The notes: generated by a model not told the origin, from the sequence alone. A stretch of 23,373 nt of DNA from a virus (IMGVR_UViG_2663763232_000005), one strand, 5' to 3'; shown: positions 5,440 through 23,373, numbered from the stretch's first letter. Numbers and translations: made by a program.

Positions 5440-5970
5440 TTAGCGAGTCAGAAACAACGAATCTTTATACTTTTGCTGTTGTTCATTTAAATACTTAGCT
5501 GTTTCATCGCTGGCAAATGGAAATATTACCGTATTTTTAGGCATGGTAATTTCTTTTTTGTCCAGCGTCAGAGTAAACATAGGAACATACTGAGCAGAGT
5601 AACGCACCGCAGAAACGAGCTCTAGTTTAGACTCTTCAATAACACTTAAATTATCCAGGCTAACTTTCTCTTCATCTTTTTTCTTTGACGCATTTAAAGT
5701 TTTTATTACTTTATTTAATTTCTCCTGAAAATCCTCCTTAAAGTTTTCAGGATTGCCGTCGACAACAAGAATCTGTTCACCCTGATTATCTGGAAAAATA
5801 ATCTTTGCACTTATCAATTTATTTTCTTTATAAACATCACCAAGTTTTATGGCTCCTCCAGATAACTGAATAATATGTTCATCTTTAAAGGAGATGTTGC
5901 CAGAGATTATGAGAGATGAAAAAATAGCCGCTGCTCCAAGAATTACACTTGCTGTGATATAGCCTTTCAT
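5440..5970 (-). CDS. Moron-encoded secreted or membrane-anchored protein of unknown function
   Basis: 176-aa ORF, markedly AT- and Lys-rich compared with the flanking GC-rich tail genes. N-terminus MKGYITASVILGAAAIFSSLIISG looks like a signal peptide or signal anchor with no lipobox Cys. Bracketed by a promoter-like element upstream and a strong terminator downstream. Confidence 0.6.
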   Translation of the reverse strand: MKGYITASVILGAAAIFSSLIISGNISFKDEHIIQLSGGAIKLGDVYKENKLISAKIIFPDNQGEQILVVDGNPENFKEDFQEKLNKVIKTLNASKKKDEEKVSLDNLSVIEESKLELVSAVRYSAQYVPMFTLTLDKKEITMPKNTVIFPFASDETAKYLNEQQQKYKDSLFLTR

Positions 5971-15623: not shown

Positions 15624-17357
15624 TTAAAGCGAGCGGATCCCATAGGACTCAATGTGGTCAGACAGCGTGTCTTCTTTCTCGTACAGCATGGCTCTGCCAA
15701 CCGCCATAATCAGCGCAACTGCACCATCGATTTTGTTTTCCGCCTGCTCCTTGACAGGCTTCACCACATCATCGTTACCCGGAATGGTTTTGCCGACCAC
15801 GTTGCCGATACACCAGGTCATGATGGGATTGCCGTCATGATGAAAGCGCCCCGATTCAATCGCCGCTTCCAGCTCTTTCATCGGATCGGACATGTTGGTG
15901 TAATTCTGAATGATGGTGATGGGGTTCAGGTCTTCATCAGCAAGGTCATGCGACAGCCCGGTCGCCCCGAAGGGGTCGATGGGTGACTCACTGACCGGGC
16001 TGATTTTGTTCGCCGCTTTGGCCTCCTCGAGGATGTAGCGATAATCCACCTCCGCACCAGCGGTAACAGTCAGAACGCCCATTTCCACCCATTTCTGAAA
16101 GCGTTCGGCTGTCCGGCGATCTTCATTTTTCTCGACGCTGTACACCGTGTCATACGGTACCCAGAAACGCGGGGCTACACTGTAGTAATGCGTTTTACCG
16201 TCAATCTCGCGGGTATAAAGTCGCGCCATGCTGTTCATATCCAGCTTACGCGCCAGGTCAAAGGCCAGAATGCACGGCTGCCCCTCGAACTGCTCAAGGG
16301 TCAGTGATTTATCCTCGCAGCTCTGCCAGCTCACCAGGTTGAAATACGCCGAACGTGCCGACACCCAGATATTGAGGTGTTTTGTTTTAAAGACGTTTGC
16401 CAGACGGGCGTTATTTTTCGCACGCTGCTGCTGACTTAACAAAAATTCGCGATAAACCGACACGCCAATATTTGGATTGGCTTTTTCCAGCACCTGCGGG
16501 TCGGTCCAGTCGTCACCTTCATCAACGGTATAGATGATCCCGAACAGTTCATCGTTAGGCACCAAGCCGTTGAGCATCTCGATGACTTCCCGCCGCTTGT
16601 CGTAGCACGGCCCCTCAATGTTGTACCCGGCGGTGGTGATGGCCCACATCAGTGGCTGACGTCGCGCGCCCATCCCGGTAAGCATCGTGGTGTAAAGTGC
16701 ATCTGTGGCATGCTCGTGATATTCATCCACCACAGCACAGTGGGGTGATGAACCATCACCGGGGTTACCGATCAGCGGTTCAAACCGCGCGCCATCCTCC
16801 GGACGGTTCATGTTTGAGGCGTTAACCTCAATCCCGAACGCTTCCGTCAGCATGGGTGTGCGTTTACACATCAGTCGCGCCGGGCGAAAGACTTCCCACG
16901 CCTGTTTCTCTGTCGTGGCACCGGAATACACTTCCGCGCCAAACTCGTTATCACAGGCAAAACAATACAGGGCAACACCGGCAGAGATTGCCGATTTGCC
17001 GTTCTTACGGGGGATTTCGGTATACACCTCCCGGAAGCGGCGCAGCCGGGTACCTTTATTGACCCAGCCAAACGCACAGCAGATCACAAAGAGCTGCCAC
17101 GGCTCCAGCGTGATGGGCATCCGTTTGAATGCCCACTCACCCTTGGTATGCGGCAACAGCTGAATAAATTTGGCGGCCCGTTCAGCCAGGTCCTTGTCGA
17201 AGCGGTAACGAAACGACTTACTTTTTTCCGCCATCAGGTCATCAAGATGGCGCTGGCAGGCCTGAATCACAAACTGGCAGGCCACAATCTTTCCGCGAAC
17301 GACATCCCGGGCATACTGATTGGCAGCATTTACGTTGGGGTAAGATTTCCGGCTCAT
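15624..17357 (-). CDS. Terminase large subunit
   Basis: 577-aa ORF, size typical of terL, with ATGA overlap with the small subunit gene upstream and the portal gene downstream. Confidence 0.9.
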
Positions 17358-17857
17358 GATTCGATAATTTTCAGAAACGGGTTAGTGGCTTTCTTCTGCC
17401 CCGCCAGGCCAATCAGACGCTGGCGGCTGCTGGGGTCGAGTCCGAGCATTGCCCCCGTGCTGCTCATCTCGGACTCCTGTTCTTTTTTGGCGGTCAGCTC
17501 CGGGTTTTTGACCATACCGCCCATTGCACCGGTGATGGTGTTGCCCTGGCTGGCAATATTTTTCACGGCACGTCGCCAGAACTCATAGGCCACGCACCAC
17601 CGCTCAAGTACCGCCAGGTCAGTCACGCACAACAGGCCCTGACCGCAGAGTTCTTTGGTTGTCAGTTGCCACATGATCGTGGCGAGAGGGAGATCTTCTT
17701 CAGCGAACCACTCCGGTGGCTCAACACCTTTGATGGGCGTAAAAACAGGTTCATCTTTGTTCAGGGCTCGCTTGCCGGGGTTTCCGGCCAGCGCCTTGCG
17801 CGCCGTTGGCTTGGGGCGACGCCCGGAACGCCCCGCCGTTCCAGCCATATGCGGCAC
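17354..17857 (-). CDS. Terminase small subunit (P27 family-like)
   Basis: 167-aa ORF with a basic N-terminus ([22 protein letters not shown]), immediately upstream of terL and downstream of HNH. Confidence 0.8.
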
Positions 17858-17973
17858 TCCTGGTTAAATTTCATTTTTCGCGGGTATAAAAAAACGATGG
17901 GGCGGGCAGTCCGGAAGACGTCAGGTCACAGAGATTTGACCCGCCCCTCCCCTCAGACAGTTGAGAGTTATTA
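17858..17973. other. Putative cos/packaging-initiation region
   Basis: 116-bp non-coding gap between the HNH and terS genes, containing the inverted repeat GGGGCGGG (about 17900) and CCCGCCCC (about 17941). The position matches where HK97-type phages carry cos. Confidence 0.3.
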
Positions 17974-18324
17974 TCACTTAAGCCGTTCACGGGCCGTCTT
18001 CGCCTTATGACACGGCCAGCACAGACTCTGCAGATTACTGTCGGCATCAGTGCCGCCATGTACTTTAGGGATGATGTGGTCAACGGTTTTCGCTTCACGC
18101 GCCACACCAGCACGCAGACATAACTGACACAGGCCTTTGTCACGTTGCAGCACACGCACACGGATAACATCCCACTTAGAACCATAACCGCGCTGATGAC
18201 GGGATCGTCCTGACTTGTATTGCTTCCAGCCTTCGCTTTTGTGGCTTTCGCAGTAGCCTGACGGGTCTGTCGTGGTATTACGGCAGCCGCGAACGCGGCA
18301 GGCTTTTGGAGTTCGAGGGGGCAT
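17974..18324 (-). CDS. HNH endonuclease
   Basis: 116-aa ORF with Cys-rich motifs (CRVRGC...CESH, HIIPKVHGG, CWPCH). AGGAA sits about 9 nt before the ATG. Adjacent to terS, as in HK97. Confidence 0.85.
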   Translation of the reverse strand: MPPRTPKACRVRGCRNTTTDPSGYCESHKSEGWKQYKSGRSRHQRGYGSKWDVIRVRVLQRDKGLCQLCLRAGVAREAKTVDHIIPKVHGGTDADSNLQSLCWPCHKAKTARERLK

Positions 18325-18350: not shown

Positions 18351-18623
18351 CTATTTGCCTGCTGCCAGCAAAGCGTTACGGCGCATCTCGATACTTCGAA
18401 TCCCCGCTTTGTCAATATTGCATTGTCCCAACGCCGAAAGCAGGCTCACATTCAGATCCAGACTGGCCCCATAGGTCAGCGGCTCGGGAATGACTGGCTG
18501 GGGAGTTTCAGTAGTCAGGCTTGCTGGCAACGGTACCGCCGGAATCGGTACGTAAACTGTTCGCGTACTTCCGCAACCGGTCAGCAGCGGCAGCAGGCAC
18601 ATGACGTGAAGCACAATCATCAT
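18351..18623 (-). CDS. Rz1-like o-spanin (outer-membrane lipoprotein)
   Basis: +1-frame ORF starting inside Rz, with lipobox LLTGC and a Pro-rich mature region (VYVPIPAVPLPASLTTETPQPVIPEP). It extends 157 nt past the Rz stop. Start is ambiguous between ATG 18623 and ATG 18689. Confidence 0.6.
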   Translation of the reverse strand: MMIVLHVMCLLPLLTGCGSTRTVYVPIPAVPLPASLTTETPQPVIPEPLTYGASLDLNVSLLSALGQCNIDKAGIRSIEMRRNALLAAGK

Positions 18624-18900
18624 CCGCAACAGCCACTTTGATATCTTCCTGGGTTCTCTGTGACTCCAGTGCGATCTGCTGTTTTGCATGCTGGTTAGCC
18701 TCTATAACTGTATTGATGATTTGCAGTGATTGCAGAACGTTACGGGTAATGGCAGTTGCTGATTCAGCATTTCGTACAGCCTCATCAGCACGCTCCTTTT
18801 CGTGCTGATATTTGCTGTAGTAATGTCCAGCAGACCAGATGAAGGAACCAATGACGCTAACAACGAAGGCAACAATAACCAGCTTATATCTCAGCTTCAT
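18508..18900 (-). CDS. Rz-like i-spanin
   Basis: 130-aa ORF with an N-terminal transmembrane helix (LVIVAFVVSVIGSFIW) and a charged helical periplasmic domain, directly after the endolysin gene. Confidence 0.7.
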   Translation of the reverse strand: MKLRYKLVIVAFVVSVIGSFIWSAGHYYSKYQHEKERADEAVRNAESATAITRNVLQSLQIINTVIEANQHAKQQIALESQRTQEDIKVAVADDDCASRHVPAAAADRLRKYANSLRTDSGGTVASKPDY

Positions 18901-19360
18901 TTACTACCCCACCAGCTTTTTTAAATCGGGCAATCAGGTCACCGATTTTATGTTCATACTGACCGTAACCTGCACCAGGTAACGACGCCCAGATATTGCT
19001 GCAACGGTCGATTGCCTGACGAATACTGCCGCGGTCAATCATCGGTAAAGCACCACGCTCTTTAATCTGCTGCAGAGCTACAGCGTCCTGGCTTTCTGGA
19101 GAAAAATCTTTCAGGCCAAGCTGTTTACGGTAAGCATCCCACCAGCGTGAAAGAAGCTGGTAACGTCCGGCAGCTGTTGATTTGAGTTTGGGGTTTAGCG
19201 TGACAAGTTTGCGAGGGTGATCGGAGTAATCAGTGAACAGTTCGCCACCAACAATAACATCATAACCGTGGTTACGTGTCGGTTGTCGCCCGTTATCCGT
19301 TCCTTCTGACCATGCCACCATATCCAGGAAAGCTTTACGCTGGGAATTTAGTGCCTGCAT
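18884..19360 (-). CDS. Endolysin, lambda R-type lytic transglycosylase
   Basis: 158-aa ORF (NSQRKAFLDMVAWSEGTDNGRQPTRNHGYDVIVGGELFTDYSDHPRKLVTLNPKLKSTAAGRYQLLSRWWDAYRKQLGLKDF...) that is near-identical over most of its length to the lambda R sequence as I remember it. Confidence 0.85.
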   Translation of the reverse strand: MQALNSQRKAFLDMVAWSEGTDNGRQPTRNHGYDVIVGGELFTDYSDHPRKLVTLNPKLKSTAAGRYQLLSRWWDAYRKQLGLKDFSPESQDAVALQQIKERGALPMIDRGSIRQAIDRCSNIWASLPGAGYGQYEHKIGDLIARFKKAGGVVNEAEI

Positions 19361-19363
19361 AAA

Positions 19364-19699
19364 TTACTCCTTCGAGCTACCAAATTTGTTACCGATTACT
19401 CGCATTGCAGCCCCACGAATAGCATCGACACCGATCAGCCCCACGCCACCACCAATGGCAACAGAAAGCGATTTAGGCCATCCGACATATTCAAGAGCGG
19501 ATGCAAAGGTCAGCGTCAGAGCGCCACATAGCAAAATCTCGAGCGTTTTTCGCTTCCAGCCACCACCACCGCCAAAATAGGCGATGCGCAAACCAGCCAT
19601 AACGATCGACATAATCACTGCACCCAGCGGTGTGTCTCCACGCCACCAGCTCTGAAACAACTCCAGCCAGTCCGGCCAGGTATTTGGGTTATGAGGCAT
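19364..19699 (-). CDS. Holin (class I-like, three predicted TM helices)
   Basis: Start proposed at ATG 19699 with GAGGTG about 15 nt upstream, rather than the track start at 19795, which would overlap the methyltransferase. About 111 aa with three hydrophobic segments, immediately upstream of the endolysin. Confidence 0.6.
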   Translation of the reverse strand: MPHNPNTWPDWLELFQSWWRGDTPLGAVIMSIVMAGLRIAYFGGGGGWKRKTLEILLCGALTLTFASALEYVGWPKSLSVAIGGGVGLIGVDAIRGAAMRVIGNKFGSSKE

Positions 19700-19742
19700 T
19701 TCGTCATCTCTCACCTCGCGATATTTGCGGGTGCTGTGTTGG

Positions 19743-19768
19743 AAATAAAAAGGCCACGCAACGTGGCC
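19743..19768 (-). terminator. Intrinsic terminator between the methyltransferase and holin genes
   Basis: On the minus strand GGCCACG-TTG-CGTGGCC (7-bp stem) is followed by TTTTTATTTCC, starting 8 nt after the methyltransferase stop. Confidence 0.6.
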
Positions 19769-19775
19769 ACCAGAA

Positions 19776-20828
19776 TTATTTCCCCACCAGTTCACTTACC
19801 TCTTTCACCGTCTGATTAAACCGCTCTGACTCAAGTTCAACACCTAACGCCCGACGCCCCAGCGCCATTGCTGCTTTTATTGTGGAACCGGATCCCATAA
19901 AGAAATCAGCAACCAGATCACCAGGTCGACTACTGGCATTGATTATTTGCCGGAGCATATCCGCCGGTTTCTCGCACGGATGTTTACCCGGGTAGAACTG
20001 AACGGGCTTATGCGTCCAGACATCGGTATAAGGCACGGAGACTGATACGGAGAAATAGCGCCGGAGAGATTTAAACTCATCCAGCAATTCAGAATATTTG
20101 CGATTCAGTGAATCATAAGATGCCACCAGCTGGTGGTGTGGTTGTTCCAGTTGTTGTTCCTGAAACTTCTCTGCCGCTATACGGGAAAACAGTGCCTGTA
20201 ACTTCCGATAGTCAGCCTCATTCGGCAACTGCCACTGACTGGCACCAAACCAGTGGGAAACCATATTTTTCTTACCTGTGGCTTCGGCAATTTGTTTTGC
20301 CGTTATACCCAGTTCGGCACGAGCATCCCTGAAATACGATATCAGCGGTGCCATTATGTGCTGTTTGAGTTCCCTTTCTTTTGCCGCATAGCCGTCACTT
20401 TTGCCGCGATATGGCCCCTGGTAATGTTCAGCAAACAGAACGCGCTCTGTAGCGGGGAAATATGCCCGCAGGCTTTCTTTATTACACCCGTTCCATCGTC
20501 CGGACGGCTTCGCCCAGATGATATGGTTAAGCACGTTGAAACGTTCACGCATCATGATCTCGATATCAGATGCGAGGCGATGTCCACAGAACAGGTAAAG
20601 GCTTCCGGCTGGTTTCAGTACCCGCCAGAACTGGGCCAGACAGTAGTCCAGCCACTTCAGGTAATCTTCGTCCCCTTTCCACTGATTGTCCCAGCCGTTG
20701 GGCTTCACTTTGAAGTACGGCGGATCGGTAACAATCAGATCAATGGAATCATCAGGCAAGGACTGAATAAAATGCAGGCAATCAGCGTTGATTAAATCAA
20801 CACTGTTTATTTTTACAGTATTTTTCAT
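19776..20828 (-). CDS. DNA methyltransferase, beta-class N6-adenine/N4-cytosine (orphan, no endonuclease partner in window)
   Basis: 350-aa ORF with motif IV DPPY near the N-terminus (IDLIVTDPPYF) and motif I FxGxG near the C-terminus (VADFFMGSGST), the order diagnostic of beta-class amino-methyltransferases. No Shine-Dalgarno is visible before the ATG. Confidence 0.85.
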   Translation of the reverse strand: MKNTVKINSVDLINADCLHFIQSLPDDSIDLIVTDPPYFKVKPNGWDNQWKGDEDYLKWLDYCLAQFWRVLKPAGSLYLFCGHRLASDIEIMMRERFNVLNHIIWAKPSGRWNGCNKESLRAYFPATERVLFAEHYQGPYRGKSDGYAAKERELKQHIMAPLISYFRDARAELGITAKQIAEATGKKNMVSHWFGASQWQLPNEADYRKLQALFSRIAAEKFQEQQLEQPHHQLVASYDSLNRKYSELLDEFKSLRRYFSVSVSVPYTDVWTHKPVQFYPGKHPCEKPADMLRQIINASSRPGDLVADFFMGSGSTIKAAMALGRRALGVELESERFNQTVKEVSELVGK

Positions 20829-21482: not shown

Positions 21483-22415
21483 ATGACTACTACAGCCACT
21501 TCCGCGCCACTAACTAAACAAAAAAAAATGCGTATCGGTTTCTTCCAAAGCTCCTCAGGAACGAAGTCAACTACATCAAATGCACAACTTGCATTTGACA
21601 ACATGTATACAACCATTGTTACACCTTCGCAAAATTCTTATACCGCTGAGTTTGATAAGAAAAAATTAAAGATTGTATTCTTAGAAAAAGACGCACAGGC
21701 GGAGTTCTATTTTGGTTATCTATCATGCTCTCGTGATGGTTTCCACTTACCTTATATTGGTGATGAAAATTGGGATGAGCACAATATTCCGTTAGATGAT
21801 AAAAAATATATAGTCGAACGCACTTATTTTATTTACTACTATAAGAAAGACATTCTTGTTTTATCTCAAAATCATTTAGGACCTAAAGTTTCCGATTTAG
21901 CATTTCTTTTATTCAATTTTTCTGAAGAAAACAAACCTGTAGCGTTTGAGGCAATTTGGAAAAAAGAAAGTGTAAAAGAACTACTTGAAACAGGAAGCAC
22001 TTTACGTAGCTGTGAAATTACACTCGCCGCTCCACGTAATTTTAGCGCAACGGATTATGACCTTTCGAATTCATTTTCCAAAAGTATGATTGAAATGATG
22101 GCTGGGATGGGCGGTTCGCATTTAAAACTATCACTTAGAGGTAGAGCATCGCAACGTAAATTAATCCGTGGTTATCTCAGTGATGAAGTAAAAAGTGGAA
22201 TAAAGGAATTAATAGAAAAAGTTCCTCACTTATTACGTAAAGCTAATGTCACTGAACCTAAAAATACTCATTCAAGGAGTCTTCTCAATCAAGTTCTGAT
22301 CAGTGAAAAAAACATTAACACAAAAGATGGCTACGCAAAAGAAACAGATGTGCGTACTGCCTTGATCAGTGCTAAAATTGAACATGGTCAGTATTTAAAG
22401 CAATATGAAATCTGA
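21483..22415 (+). CDS. Hypothetical soluble protein, first gene of an AT-rich two-gene cargo cassette (candidate defence/exclusion sensor)
   Basis: 310-aa ORF on the strand opposite to all phage late genes; AT-rich and Lys/Asn/Ile-rich. AAGGG lies 8 nt before the ATG. No motif I recognise; SSSGTKST is not a canonical Walker A. Confidence 0.6.
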   Translation: MTTTATSAPLTKQKKMRIGFFQSSSGTKSTTSNAQLAFDNMYTTIVTPSQNSYTAEFDKKKLKIVFLEKDAQAEFYFGYLSCSRDGFHLPYIGDENWDEHNIPLDDKKYIVERTYFIYYYKKDILVLSQNHLGPKVSDLAFLLFNFSEENKPVAFEAIWKKESVKELLETGSTLRSCEITLAAPRNFSATDYDLSNSFSKSMIEMMAGMGGSHLKLSLRGRASQRKLIRGYLSDEVKSGIKELIEKVPHLLRKANVTEPKNTHSRSLLNQVLISEKNINTKDGYAKETDVRTALISAKIEHGQYLKQYEI

Positions 22416-22429
22416 TCTTATTTTTAAGG

Positions 22430-22882
22430 ATGATGATTATGCTTATTAAAGTTTTAATTAACATAGTTATCAGTGGGCTGTTAGCTTGGGTGCTTGGGAA
22501 ATACCTAGCGCCTATGGCTCACTCTGATATCTTAAGTACAGCCGGAGTGTTATCTACGGTGGCAGGCATTTTGTTTGGTTTTGTATTGGCCGCTATTTCC
22601 ATCTTCAGTTCTGCAAGTTCAAGTACTGATGGAATTATTTTTGCTTTAAAACAAAACAAGATTTTACCTAAAATTATTCATAACCTGTTATCTACGGGAG
22701 TTACCTTAATATTAGCATGTATTTTCCCGCTGATAGCAATGTTTATAAATGAAAAAATCACCATTACCTCTGTAAGACTTGATTTCGCCCTAACCTTATA
22801 TGGTTTCTCGACCCTGATCGTATCAATAGTTTCATTTGCAAGTACCTGGAGAAAAATAAACTGGATATTACCCCACATATAA
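22430..22882 (+). CDS. Hypothetical integral membrane protein with four predicted TM helices, second gene of the cassette (candidate effector)
   Basis: 150-aa ORF starting 14 nt after the upstream stop. AAGGA precedes the start; the ATG at 22439 has the best spacing. Four hydrophobic segments at roughly residues 5-27, 38-62, 78-106 and 118-140. Confidence 0.6.
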   Translation: MMIMLIKVLINIVISGLLAWVLGKYLAPMAHSDILSTAGVLSTVAGILFGFVLAAISIFSSASSSTDGIIFALKQNKILPKIIHNLLSTGVTLILACIFPLIAMFINEKITITSVRLDFALTLYGFSTLIVSIVSFASTWRKINWILPHI

Positions 22883-22925: not shown

Positions 22926-23288
22926 TTAATCCATATCTAAGCTAACATTTAGAATAGCTAGACAACCTTCTATAAATCCCTCAGCCATCTGTATCTCAAT
23001 GCGTATTATTTTCTCATCCTTTTTGCGAGCTTTAGCGAGCTTTCTTTTAGAGATACCGTATAGGTAATGGGCAACAAGAAGCGAGTGTTCTTCAGGTCTT
23101 TTTTGCTTTAGACGAGCAAGACAACCTTCAATAATTAATGCATCACTATCTGAACAAGCCTGACGTGTTTTGCTTGTATAGGGAAGAAGCCCTTTAAACC
23201 CAGCAGCTATAGGCGAATAGTCTACCCCAGAACTATCACTCGCCGCCCATGCACCCCAACGATCCAGAACCATCTGAATATCACGCAT
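22926..23288 (-). CDS. Late-gene antiterminator Q (phage 82 / QuuD-like family)
   Basis: Track ORF runs to 23366, but the ATG at 23288 is preceded by GGAG 7 nt upstream and gives MRDIQMVLDRWGAWAASDSSGVDYSPIAAGFKGLLP..., which resembles the QuuD-type Q N-terminus as I recall it. Confidence 0.65.
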   Translation of the reverse strand: MRDIQMVLDRWGAWAASDSSGVDYSPIAAGFKGLLPYTSKTRQACSDSDALIIEGCLARLKQKRPEEHSLLVAHYLYGISKRKLAKARKKDEKIIRIEIQMAEGFIEGCLAILNVSLDMD

Positions 23289-23373
23289 CAACTTTCTCCA
23301 CAAAATCAGGCCAGCATGACCTGCTCCCCGTTGATTAGTACACCCCGATGTTAGTAATGTCTTCATAAGCCAC

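Follow-up and report, generated by a model that had tools for sequence, protein, structure and literature searches.

The non-coding gap between an HNH endonuclease gene and the terminase gene terS in the window (the whole 23,373-nt stretch of viral DNA analyzed here, IMGVR_UViG_2663763232_000005) is very probably the cos site of an SfV/SfI-type prophage. We hold this explanation with high confidence as an account of the locus as a whole, comprising 10-nt cohesive ends, a GC-rich inverted repeat that has not been selected as such, and the steps of the packaging mechanism proposed below. The presence of a cos site in this gap is already known, as it was mapped experimentally in near-identical phages in the literature of 2002-2013. 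What may be new is the conservation of the elements upstream of the cut across phyla, together with the coincidence between the nick site of the HNH enzyme and the boundary of the cohesive end.

We describe the locus in phage orientation, which is the reverse complement of the window. From the Q antiterminator gene (22926-23366, minus strand) through terL and the tail genes, all genes of the window lie on the minus strand, with the exception of two cargo genes on the + strand (21483-22882), a pair for which PADLOC returned no match. In phage orientation, the Q gene and the cargo pair are followed by a type II DNA methyltransferase gene (19776-20828, minus strand), the lysis genes (holin, endolysin, and Rz/Rz1; 18351-19795, minus strand), the HNH endonuclease gene (17974-18324, minus strand), the gap, terS (17354-17848, minus strand), and an HK97-type terL (15624-17357, minus strand) whose start overlaps the terS stop codon. 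After terL, Pfam matches identify the portal protein (PF04860), an S78 prohead protease (PF04586), and an HK97-fold capsid protein (PF05065), and beyond the capsid gene come head-tail connectors and then a Mu-like contractile tail. This gene layout is that of the SfV group of temperate phages, whose heads are HK97-like and whose contractile tails are Mu-like. In a megablast comparison with phage genomes, terS and the gap show 97.7-98.2% DNA identity to the Shigella phages SfV, SfI, SfII, and SfIV, and several E. coli phages are also 97-98% identical. The same segment is present in 1,141 of 5,426 complete E. coli genomes (~21%), and the linear records of SfV-type relatives start within the HNH-terS gap. 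In all features that can be tested at the sequence level, the locus agrees with the SfV/SfI cos module.

The rightmost gene of the phage genome encodes an HNH endonuclease of 116 aa (Pfam HNH, 6.6e-16; PHROG 144, 7.7e-45), which is composed of an N-terminal zinc ribbon and a beta-beta-alpha-Me HNH domain. Its catalytic residues H83, N97, and H106 are all intact, as are the zinc ligands of the N-terminal ribbon (CxxxxC at 9-14 and CxxH at 25-28) and the CxxC pairs at 66-69 and 102-105. The entire protein can be aligned with the GVE2 HNH structure (5h0m, 7e-13), and it is 78% identical to the phiP27 HNH protein, 38% identical to HK97 gp74, and 36% identical to N.phiGamma of phage Gamma. Its motifs and the adjacency to terS and terL fit the zinc-ribbon Group 1 of Xu and Gupta. 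Members of this kind that lie next to terminase genes in phage Gamma and GVE2 are strand-specific nickases, cutting CG^GT (AC^CG) and tolerating ACTG as a variant (PMC3592412).

TerS belongs to the P27 family (Pfam Terminase_4, PF05119/TIGR01558, 4.4e-21, 75.6 bits against a gathering cutoff of 24.7; PHROG 83, 7.5e-60) and is 99% identical to SfV orf1 and 48% identical to phiP27 L35. Its length is 164 aa if translation begins at the ATG at 17848, which is also the annotated SfV start and is preceded by the ribosome-binding site AGGAG at 17857-17861. TerL contains an ATPase and an RNase-H-like nuclease domain (Pfam PF03354 and PF20441, TerL_ATPase and TerL_nuclease) and is homologous to HK97 TerL (PDB 6z6d, 4.3e-25). 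These Pfam and PHROG matches, all on the minus strand, bear out the proposal of an earlier, sequence-only reading of this DNA that an HNH gene lies directly upstream of terS and terL. That reading had also described a non-coding gap of 116 bp; the gap is real, and the figure holds only for a mechanically assigned GTG start at 17857, the ATG giving 125 bp (17849-17973). Its further claim of an HK97-like arrangement needs to be narrowed in a similar way. The gene order is shared and both TerL and HNH are homologous to their HK97 counterparts, but TerS is of the P27 family and not gp1-like: BLASTP detected no similarity between the window TerS and HK97 gp1, and gp1 has no Terminase_4 match in Pfam. 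A sequence search of the PDB with the window TerS gave no match.

Evidence for the position of the genome ends comes from the closest relatives. Run-off sequencing of SfI virion DNA showed that 10 nt, 5'-TGCCCGCCCC-3', are missing with respect to the prophage (PMC3636060), from which Sun et al. (2013) concluded that packaging is of the cos type, as in SfV (PMC3636060), and according to the SfIV paper, SfI, SfII, SfIV, and SfV share one identical cos site (PMC3851460). Exactly this 10-mer occurs in the window at 17908..17899 on the minus strand (GGGGCGGGCA on the + strand), where it is unique, and the first base of the SfI record is colinear with position 17898. The 10-nt cos-site annotated in phiP27, CGCCCGCCCC, is colinear with this cosN, as is the physical end of HK97, which reads GAC, then CGCCGCCAAA, then GTTTG. 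The earlier proposal of a cos region in the HNH-terS gap, for which an alignment with known cos sites of HK97-like phages had been suggested as a check, thus holds up against a mapped SfI 10-mer that is identical and against colinear phiP27 and HK97 ends. The record ends of Burkholderia phi644-2, Edwardsiella EPP-1, and Bacillus Gamma are colinear with the window cosN as well; outside SfI, phiP27, and HK97, the limits of the overhang are taken from record ends or alignment rather than from cited experiments. In GenBank, the first base of the SfV record is colinear with 17915 and so lies 7 nt upstream of the overhang mapped for SfI, indicating that the two laboratories placed the end differently. 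When the cos 10-mers were looked up in full-text literature, the only matches were unrelated primers and promoters. By near-identity to SfI and SfV, the ends of the window prophage are putatively assigned to the same positions, and we infer that the phage top strand is cut between 17899 and 17898 and the + strand of the window between 17908 and 17909.

The overhang is probably a 3' extension, as in HK97, whose overhangs are 10-nt and 3' (PMC9410871, PMC11331095). This polarity is deduced from the gap between the SfI run-offs, the SfI paper itself being silent on polarity: both run-offs miss the 10-mer, which is expected only with recessed 5' ends. In an HK97-type virion contig from IMG/VR (L133), a 454 adaptor was ligated directly after ...AAATGAC, suggesting that the overhang had been polished off, as it would be for a 3' extension. 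How the 3' overhang originates is treated as an open question in the HK97 work (PMC11331095).

Upstream of the cut, the gap contains a series of short elements in a fixed arrangement. A variable linker (17955-17973, minus strand) lies 3' of the HNH stop codon; among 70 distinct close relatives, 15 of its 19 columns vary, and the window carries the SfV version, not the SfI version. It is followed by a G-rich block, GGGGAGGGGCGGG in phage orientation (17940-17952, minus strand), by the motif TCAAATC (17933-17939, minus strand), and by a 24-nt spacer with GGAC at its end (17909-17932, minus strand), which leads directly to cosN (17899-17908, minus strand). The first 9 nt of the spacer are variable, while its terminal (G/T)AC is conserved. 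The G-rich block is near-invariant in the 70 close relatives, in which the non-coding DNA at 17846-17954 is conserved at least as well as the flanking coding DNA, and it is also found in phiP27, HK97, Klebsiella phages, phi467, Gamma, phi644-2, and EPP-1. The initial T of TCAAATC lies 31 nt from the first cohesive-end base in the window, SfV, SfI, ST64B, phiP27, Klebsiella phages, phi467, HK97, and Gamma, and the same spacing is kept in 74 of 80 HK97-type loci. The layout as such is common to phiP27, HK97, and Klebsiella, Edwardsiella, and Burkholderia phages, with the spacing within 1-2 nt, and to Gamma. The combined G-block/TCAAATC pattern occurs once in the window, against 0.00 occurrences expected by chance.

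In an alignment of 40 distinct loci from many genera, anchored at the left cut, the columns of the G-block and of AAATC reach 1.3-2.0 bits in fixed register, and the left boundary reads (G/T)AC before the cut and YGCC after it, with the caveat that left-boundary columns partly served as the anchor, so that their conservation is inflated. The right cut boundary is nearly uninformative in the same alignment. Two further candidate elements did not hold. A hairpin in the spacer (GGTCA...TGACC) is broken without compensation by the common variants CCTGCGGCC and CCTGCAGCC, and an IHF-type site at TCAAATC, judged by inspection, does not fit WATCAANNNNTTR.

On the other side of the cut, just inside the left genome end, lie a tract of seven T residues (T7; +5 to +11; 17888-17894, minus strand) and a candidate recognition site for the small terminase, CCCGCGAAAAATGAAATTTAA (+15 to +35; 17864-17884, minus strand). 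A T-rich run is kept at the position of the T7 tract in SfV, phiP27, Klebsiella, EPP-1, and phi644-2-type sites. The 21-mer CCCGCGAAAAATGAAATTTAA is non-coding and is nevertheless identical in Burkholderia phi644-2, though the two TerS proteins are only 52% identical. When one genome per species was scanned with the 20-mer core CCGCGAAAAATGAAATTTAA, 44 of 47 matches fell in the same cos architecture, spanning ~20 genera from Enterobacterales, Vibrio, Burkholderiales, and others. The other three (two in Flavobacterium, one in an uncultured contig) lack a cos context and were taken as chance. The 21-mer resembles the minimal HK97 TerS site, CTAACCCGATTTTTT at +15 to +29 (PMC11331095), in position and content. 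We regard CCCGCGAAAAATGAAATTTAA as a candidate TerS-binding site; since the window TerS is unlike HK97 gp1, the analogy draws on position and cross-genus conservation alone.

The two halves of the cos region also appear in different combinations. In phage phi467 and Klebsiella phage 1 LV-2017, the left part is SfV-like, whereas TerS and the downstream DNA are different, and a further locus (L144) joins an HK97-type left part to a P27-type TerS, with the switch lying inside CGCCGC followed by TCGT. This pattern suggests that an HNH-side module (HNH, G-block, and TCAAATC) and a TerS-side module are exchanged by recombination independently of each other, the junctions falling at the overhang or within it.

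The sequence-only reading had singled out a GC-rich inverted repeat in the gap as a candidate cos or terminase-binding element. The repeat itself is exact: GGGGCGGG at 17899-17906 and CCCGCCCC at 17940-17947 are complementary in all 8 positions, with 33 nt between the arms and 41 nt from start to start, and neither 8-mer recurs elsewhere in the window. Taken alone, it stands out only slightly. Of 5,000 dinucleotide-preserving shuffles of the gap, 6.2% contained a perfect inverted repeat with arms of 8 nt or more and a loop of 3-60, which corresponds to a chance probability of ~0.06, and the whole window contains 38 such repeats, or ~0.2 per 125 nt. As for its proposed role, one part stands: with the mapped cohesive end at 17908..17899, the proximal arm GGGGCGGG makes up 8 of the 10 cohesive-end bases. 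What does not stand is the repeat as the element, since complementarity between the arms is not conserved among relatives. The distal arm CCCGCCCC (+ strand) lies inside the separate, conserved G-rich block, and among 40 distinct loci, the longest complement between block and overhang is 8 nt in only five and 3-6 nt in the rest. The repeat therefore marks cos without being a functional unit itself; it exists because a G-rich upstream block and a C-rich cohesive end share one strand, and it is best seen as a by-product, a chance perfect match in the SfV/phiP27 lineages that was not selected as a palindrome or hairpin.

Two readings would give the repeat a function of its own. If it acted as a cruciform or hairpin, or as a two-fold site for a dimeric terminase or HNH complex, one might expect just the perfect, window-unique arms described above, and both arms are indeed nearly invariant in the SfV-like lineage, with the same 8-bp complement in phiP27 and Mangrovibacter. 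However, the complement shrinks to 3-6 nt in HK97 (3 nt), Klebsiella, phi467, Xenorhabdus, Citrobacter, and Burkholderia, with GGGGGAGG naturally replacing GGGGCGGG in Citrobacter, and these relatives still retain the G-block, the spacing, and the cut site. Nor is there covariation at the sole informative pair (C/G in the block, G/C in the overhang), where 15 of the 40 loci have complementary bases and independence of the two positions would predict 19.7. One arm is, moreover, functionally bisected because it becomes the single-stranded cohesive end, and arms 41 nt apart from start to start are too distant for a simple dimer site. Together with the chance probability of the match, these points make a functional repeat very unlikely. 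The second reading, in which the repeat and the adjoining ATCG-TTTTTTT form an intrinsic terminator or another RNA structure in the late HNH-terS transcript, takes its appeal from an 8-bp GC stem that is predicted in phage-sense RNA, with U7 starting 4 nt after it. Against this, the loop measures 33 nt, a promoter and terminator scan of the gap finds none, the fold is no better than that of shuffled sequences (z = -0.82), and the cross-family RNAalifold consensus is weak (-4.8 kcal/mol; covariation term, -0.34). Rfam gives no match at E<=1, the T-tract is retained in relatives that lack the stem, and transcripts that begin at the late promoter downstream of Q have to extend past this very position to include terS and terL. 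A terminator is, in our view, extremely improbable.

A third alternative concerns the nuclease, which might be a free-standing homing endonuclease that came to lie beside the terminase genes by chance and has no part in packaging. HNH domains are common in homing endonucleases, and several GenBank records label the orthologue a "homing endonuclease." The genomic context speaks otherwise: the order HNH-cos-terS-terL is found in every relative that we examined, among them 80 SfV-type and 80 HK97-type loci and the phages of Klebsiella, Burkholderia, Edwardsiella, and Bacillus, and the HNH gene is not inside another gene or an intron. In addition, HK97 gp74 stimulates terminase cos cleavage in vitro (PMC9410871). 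We therefore consider a chance neighbor highly improbable and return to the reading of the locus as an SfV/SfI-type cos site at which HNH would take part in cleavage.

A packaging cycle based on this reading would run as follows. Concatemeric DNA would be cut inside the HNH-terS gap, yielding unit genomes with 10-nt ends, TGCCCGCCCC and its complement. The P27-family TerS would bind CCCGCGAAAAATGAAATTTAA beside the T7 tract and recruit or arrest TerL, as in HK97, where TerS binds +15 to +29 inside the left end and stalls the motor. HNH would then introduce a sequence-specific nick into the + strand of the window at GCA^GTC, between 17908 and 17909, and TerL would cleave the opposite strand at a distance of 10 nt, where the boundary shows no sequence conservation. 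The G-block and TCAAATC, which the motor would meet just before cosN as packaging ends, would serve as a positioning or termination sub-site, loosely comparable to cosQ; such a cosQ-like positioning role for the G-block is plausible by analogy.

The strand assignment in this scheme follows from the polarity, since with a 3' overhang, the strand cut at the conserved left boundary is the + strand of the window. Across loci, this complementary strand reads GCR^GT(C/A) at the left boundary, and here it reads GGGGCGGGCA^GTCC; the window site GCA^GT between 17908 and 17909 matches the published CG^GT nick specificity of the HNH enzymes. From this sequence match, HNH may nick the + strand at precisely this position. 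In the HK97 literature, a model of split nicking by HNH and TerL is mentioned only as one possibility, and the nick specificity of HNH is not tied to the cos boundary in the Xu and Gupta paper (PMC3592412). It is tempting to extend the scheme to the wider group of phages, from Gamma to HK97, phiP27, SfV, and the Burkholderia phages. These might share a three-part cos signal across phyla, consisting of the G-block and (T)CAAATC ~31 nt before the cut, a cut site reading (G/T)AC before and YGCC after the boundary, and a TerS site at +15 to +35. HNH might act in all of them as a one-strand CR^GT nickase, with TerL cutting 9-10 nt away, and the G-block might be a cosQ-like element that travels with the HNH gene in mosaics. 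We put this joint reading forward tentatively, as a serious possibility with the odds somewhat against it.

By itself, the site in the window is of little importance, being the packaging site of a very common E. coli/Shigella prophage type. Its practical use lies in the right assignment of genome ends and in spotting mobile elements that could be packaged by this terminase. Of wider interest is that the same non-coding architecture, with 31-nt spacing and a near-identical G-block, recurs in phages of Gram-negative and Gram-positive hosts. This architecture, combined with the coincidence of nick site and cos boundary, offers a concrete, testable answer to the question, in HK97-type packaging, of how the two strands are divided between the nucleases and what determines the 3' overhang.

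Among known systems, the SfV group is the closest. SfV, SfI, SfII, and SfIV have the identical TGCCCGCCCC, G-block, spacer, post-cos sequence, and gene order, and the differences from SfV and SfI are point changes only, the first base after the overhang being A in the window and SfV and G in SfI; the window copy is a prophage. The Stx2e phage phiP27, the namesake of the P27 TerS family, shares the Pfam TerS family, the G-block, the 31-nt spacing, the 8-bp complement, and ACCCGCGAAA downstream of cos, but its first overhang base is C instead of T, and the spacer and the distal TerS-side sequence differ. HK97 resembles the window in having HNH as the last gene before cos and terS-terL as the first genes after it, in the G-run and TCAAATC located exactly 31 nt ahead of the overhang and GAC just before it, in an ACCCG/CCGCG motif and A/T tract at ~+15 to +30 that TerS binds in HK97, in the families of TerL, HNH, portal, protease, and capsid, and in the 10-nt length of the cohesive end. 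It differs in that gp74, described as non-specific, lacks the N-terminal zinc ribbon of the window HNH, in its overhang (CGCCGCCAAA versus TGCCCGCCCC), in having no inverted repeat, and in the distance from gp74 to cos (~320 bp versus 65 bp from HNH to cos here).

With lambda, the window shares a three-part logic, in which an upstream element that is met last, a nick site, and a downstream TerS-binding region follow one another. The terminase proteins are unrelated, however, lambda has no HNH, the overhang probably has the opposite polarity, and no IHF-type site is evident in the window, so that the comparison of the G-block with lambda cosQ is speculation by analogy. The lambda overhang is 12 nt long; in one paper, the lengths for lambda and HK97 seem to have been exchanged (10 nt and 12 nt, respectively; PMC9410871). 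Bacillus phage Gamma infects a Gram-positive bacterium, has a 9-nt terminal repeat in its record, and differs in its TerS-side sequence. Yet Gamma combines a P27-family TerS with a PF03354 TerL, its G-block GGGTAGGGGCGGGTC agrees in 14 of 15 bases, and its end reads GGGTAGGGGCGGGTCGAAAA...GTAC followed, after the boundary, by CGCCGCCCC, with the 31-nt spacing. At the left boundary of cos, the conserved sequence corresponds to the published nick specificity of Gamma's own HNH enzyme N.phiGamma, CG^GT (AC^CG).

The cohesive end itself (cosN) may serve as a boundary between modules of two phage types, as is seen in the contig L144 (IMGVR_UViG_2840160255_000002; locus about 1800-1990). On its left, this contig carries an HNH endonuclease gene, a G-run and a TCAAATC motif that are all of the HK97 type, while its right part consists of a P27-type small-terminase gene (terS) followed by its own downstream DNA. 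L144 is a natural recombinant of an HK97-type left and a P27-type right part. The two parts meet within the cohesive end (CGCCGC|TCGT), an indication that modules are exchanged preferentially at cosN (a hotspot) or that a junction is at least permitted there.

A physical end is recorded in L133 (IMGVR_UViG_2595698462_000001; locus 1866-1916), a contig of an HK97-like phage that is terminated by a 454 adaptor (...CTCAAGGCACACAGGGGATAGG) fused directly to ...AAATGAC. This junction is the end of the genome minus its 10-nt overhang, and the public assembly has unintentionally kept a trace of what is probably a 3′ overhang. For HK97 itself, a figure legend of PMC9410871 puts the overhang at 10 nt, whereas the discussion of the same paper gives a "12-nt 3′" overhang for HK97 and a "10-nt 5′" overhang for lambda; the two figures in the discussion have apparently been swapped, and we took 10 nt for HK97, in agreement with the record ends. 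In the GenBank records of SfV and SfIV, the first base precedes the overhang that was mapped in SfI by 7 nt (TCCGGAC|TGCCCGCCCC), with position 1 of the SfV record (U82619.2) being colinear with position 17915 of the window. A T-versus-A difference between the SfI and SfV cos sites is mentioned in the SfI paper (PMC3636060), but the SfV sequence as deposited does not show it.

Elsewhere in the window, the only genes on the plus strand are a pair at 21483-22882, encoding a 310-aa DUF6731 protein (Pfam, 2.6e-11; PHROG 7651) and a 150-aa protein of PHROG 8552. The pair has the Q antiterminator gene on one side and the methyltransferase and lysis genes on the other, a placement typical for moron or defence cargo, and PADLOC returned no match for it. 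The methyltransferase (19776-20828, minus strand; 350 aa) is a type II-like DNA methyltransferase (PADLOC MTase_II, 3.6e-152; PHROG 67) and is directly followed downstream by a holin gene; no cognate nuclease was seen in its neighbourhood. Among the tail genes, a 176-aa ORF (5440-5970, minus strand; PHROG 5485, no Pfam match) forms an insertion that separates the tape-measure gene from the Mu-like DNA-circularisation/baseplate-hub gene.

The pre-cos G-block also extends to Bacillus phage Gamma (NC_007458), both ends of which (L178 and L179) carry CGCCGCCCC as a 9-nt terminal repeat. Despite the AT-rich, Gram-positive host of Gamma, 14 of the 15 bases of its G-block match those of the E. coli/Shigella phages, a conservation that is unusually deep for a non-coding phage signal.
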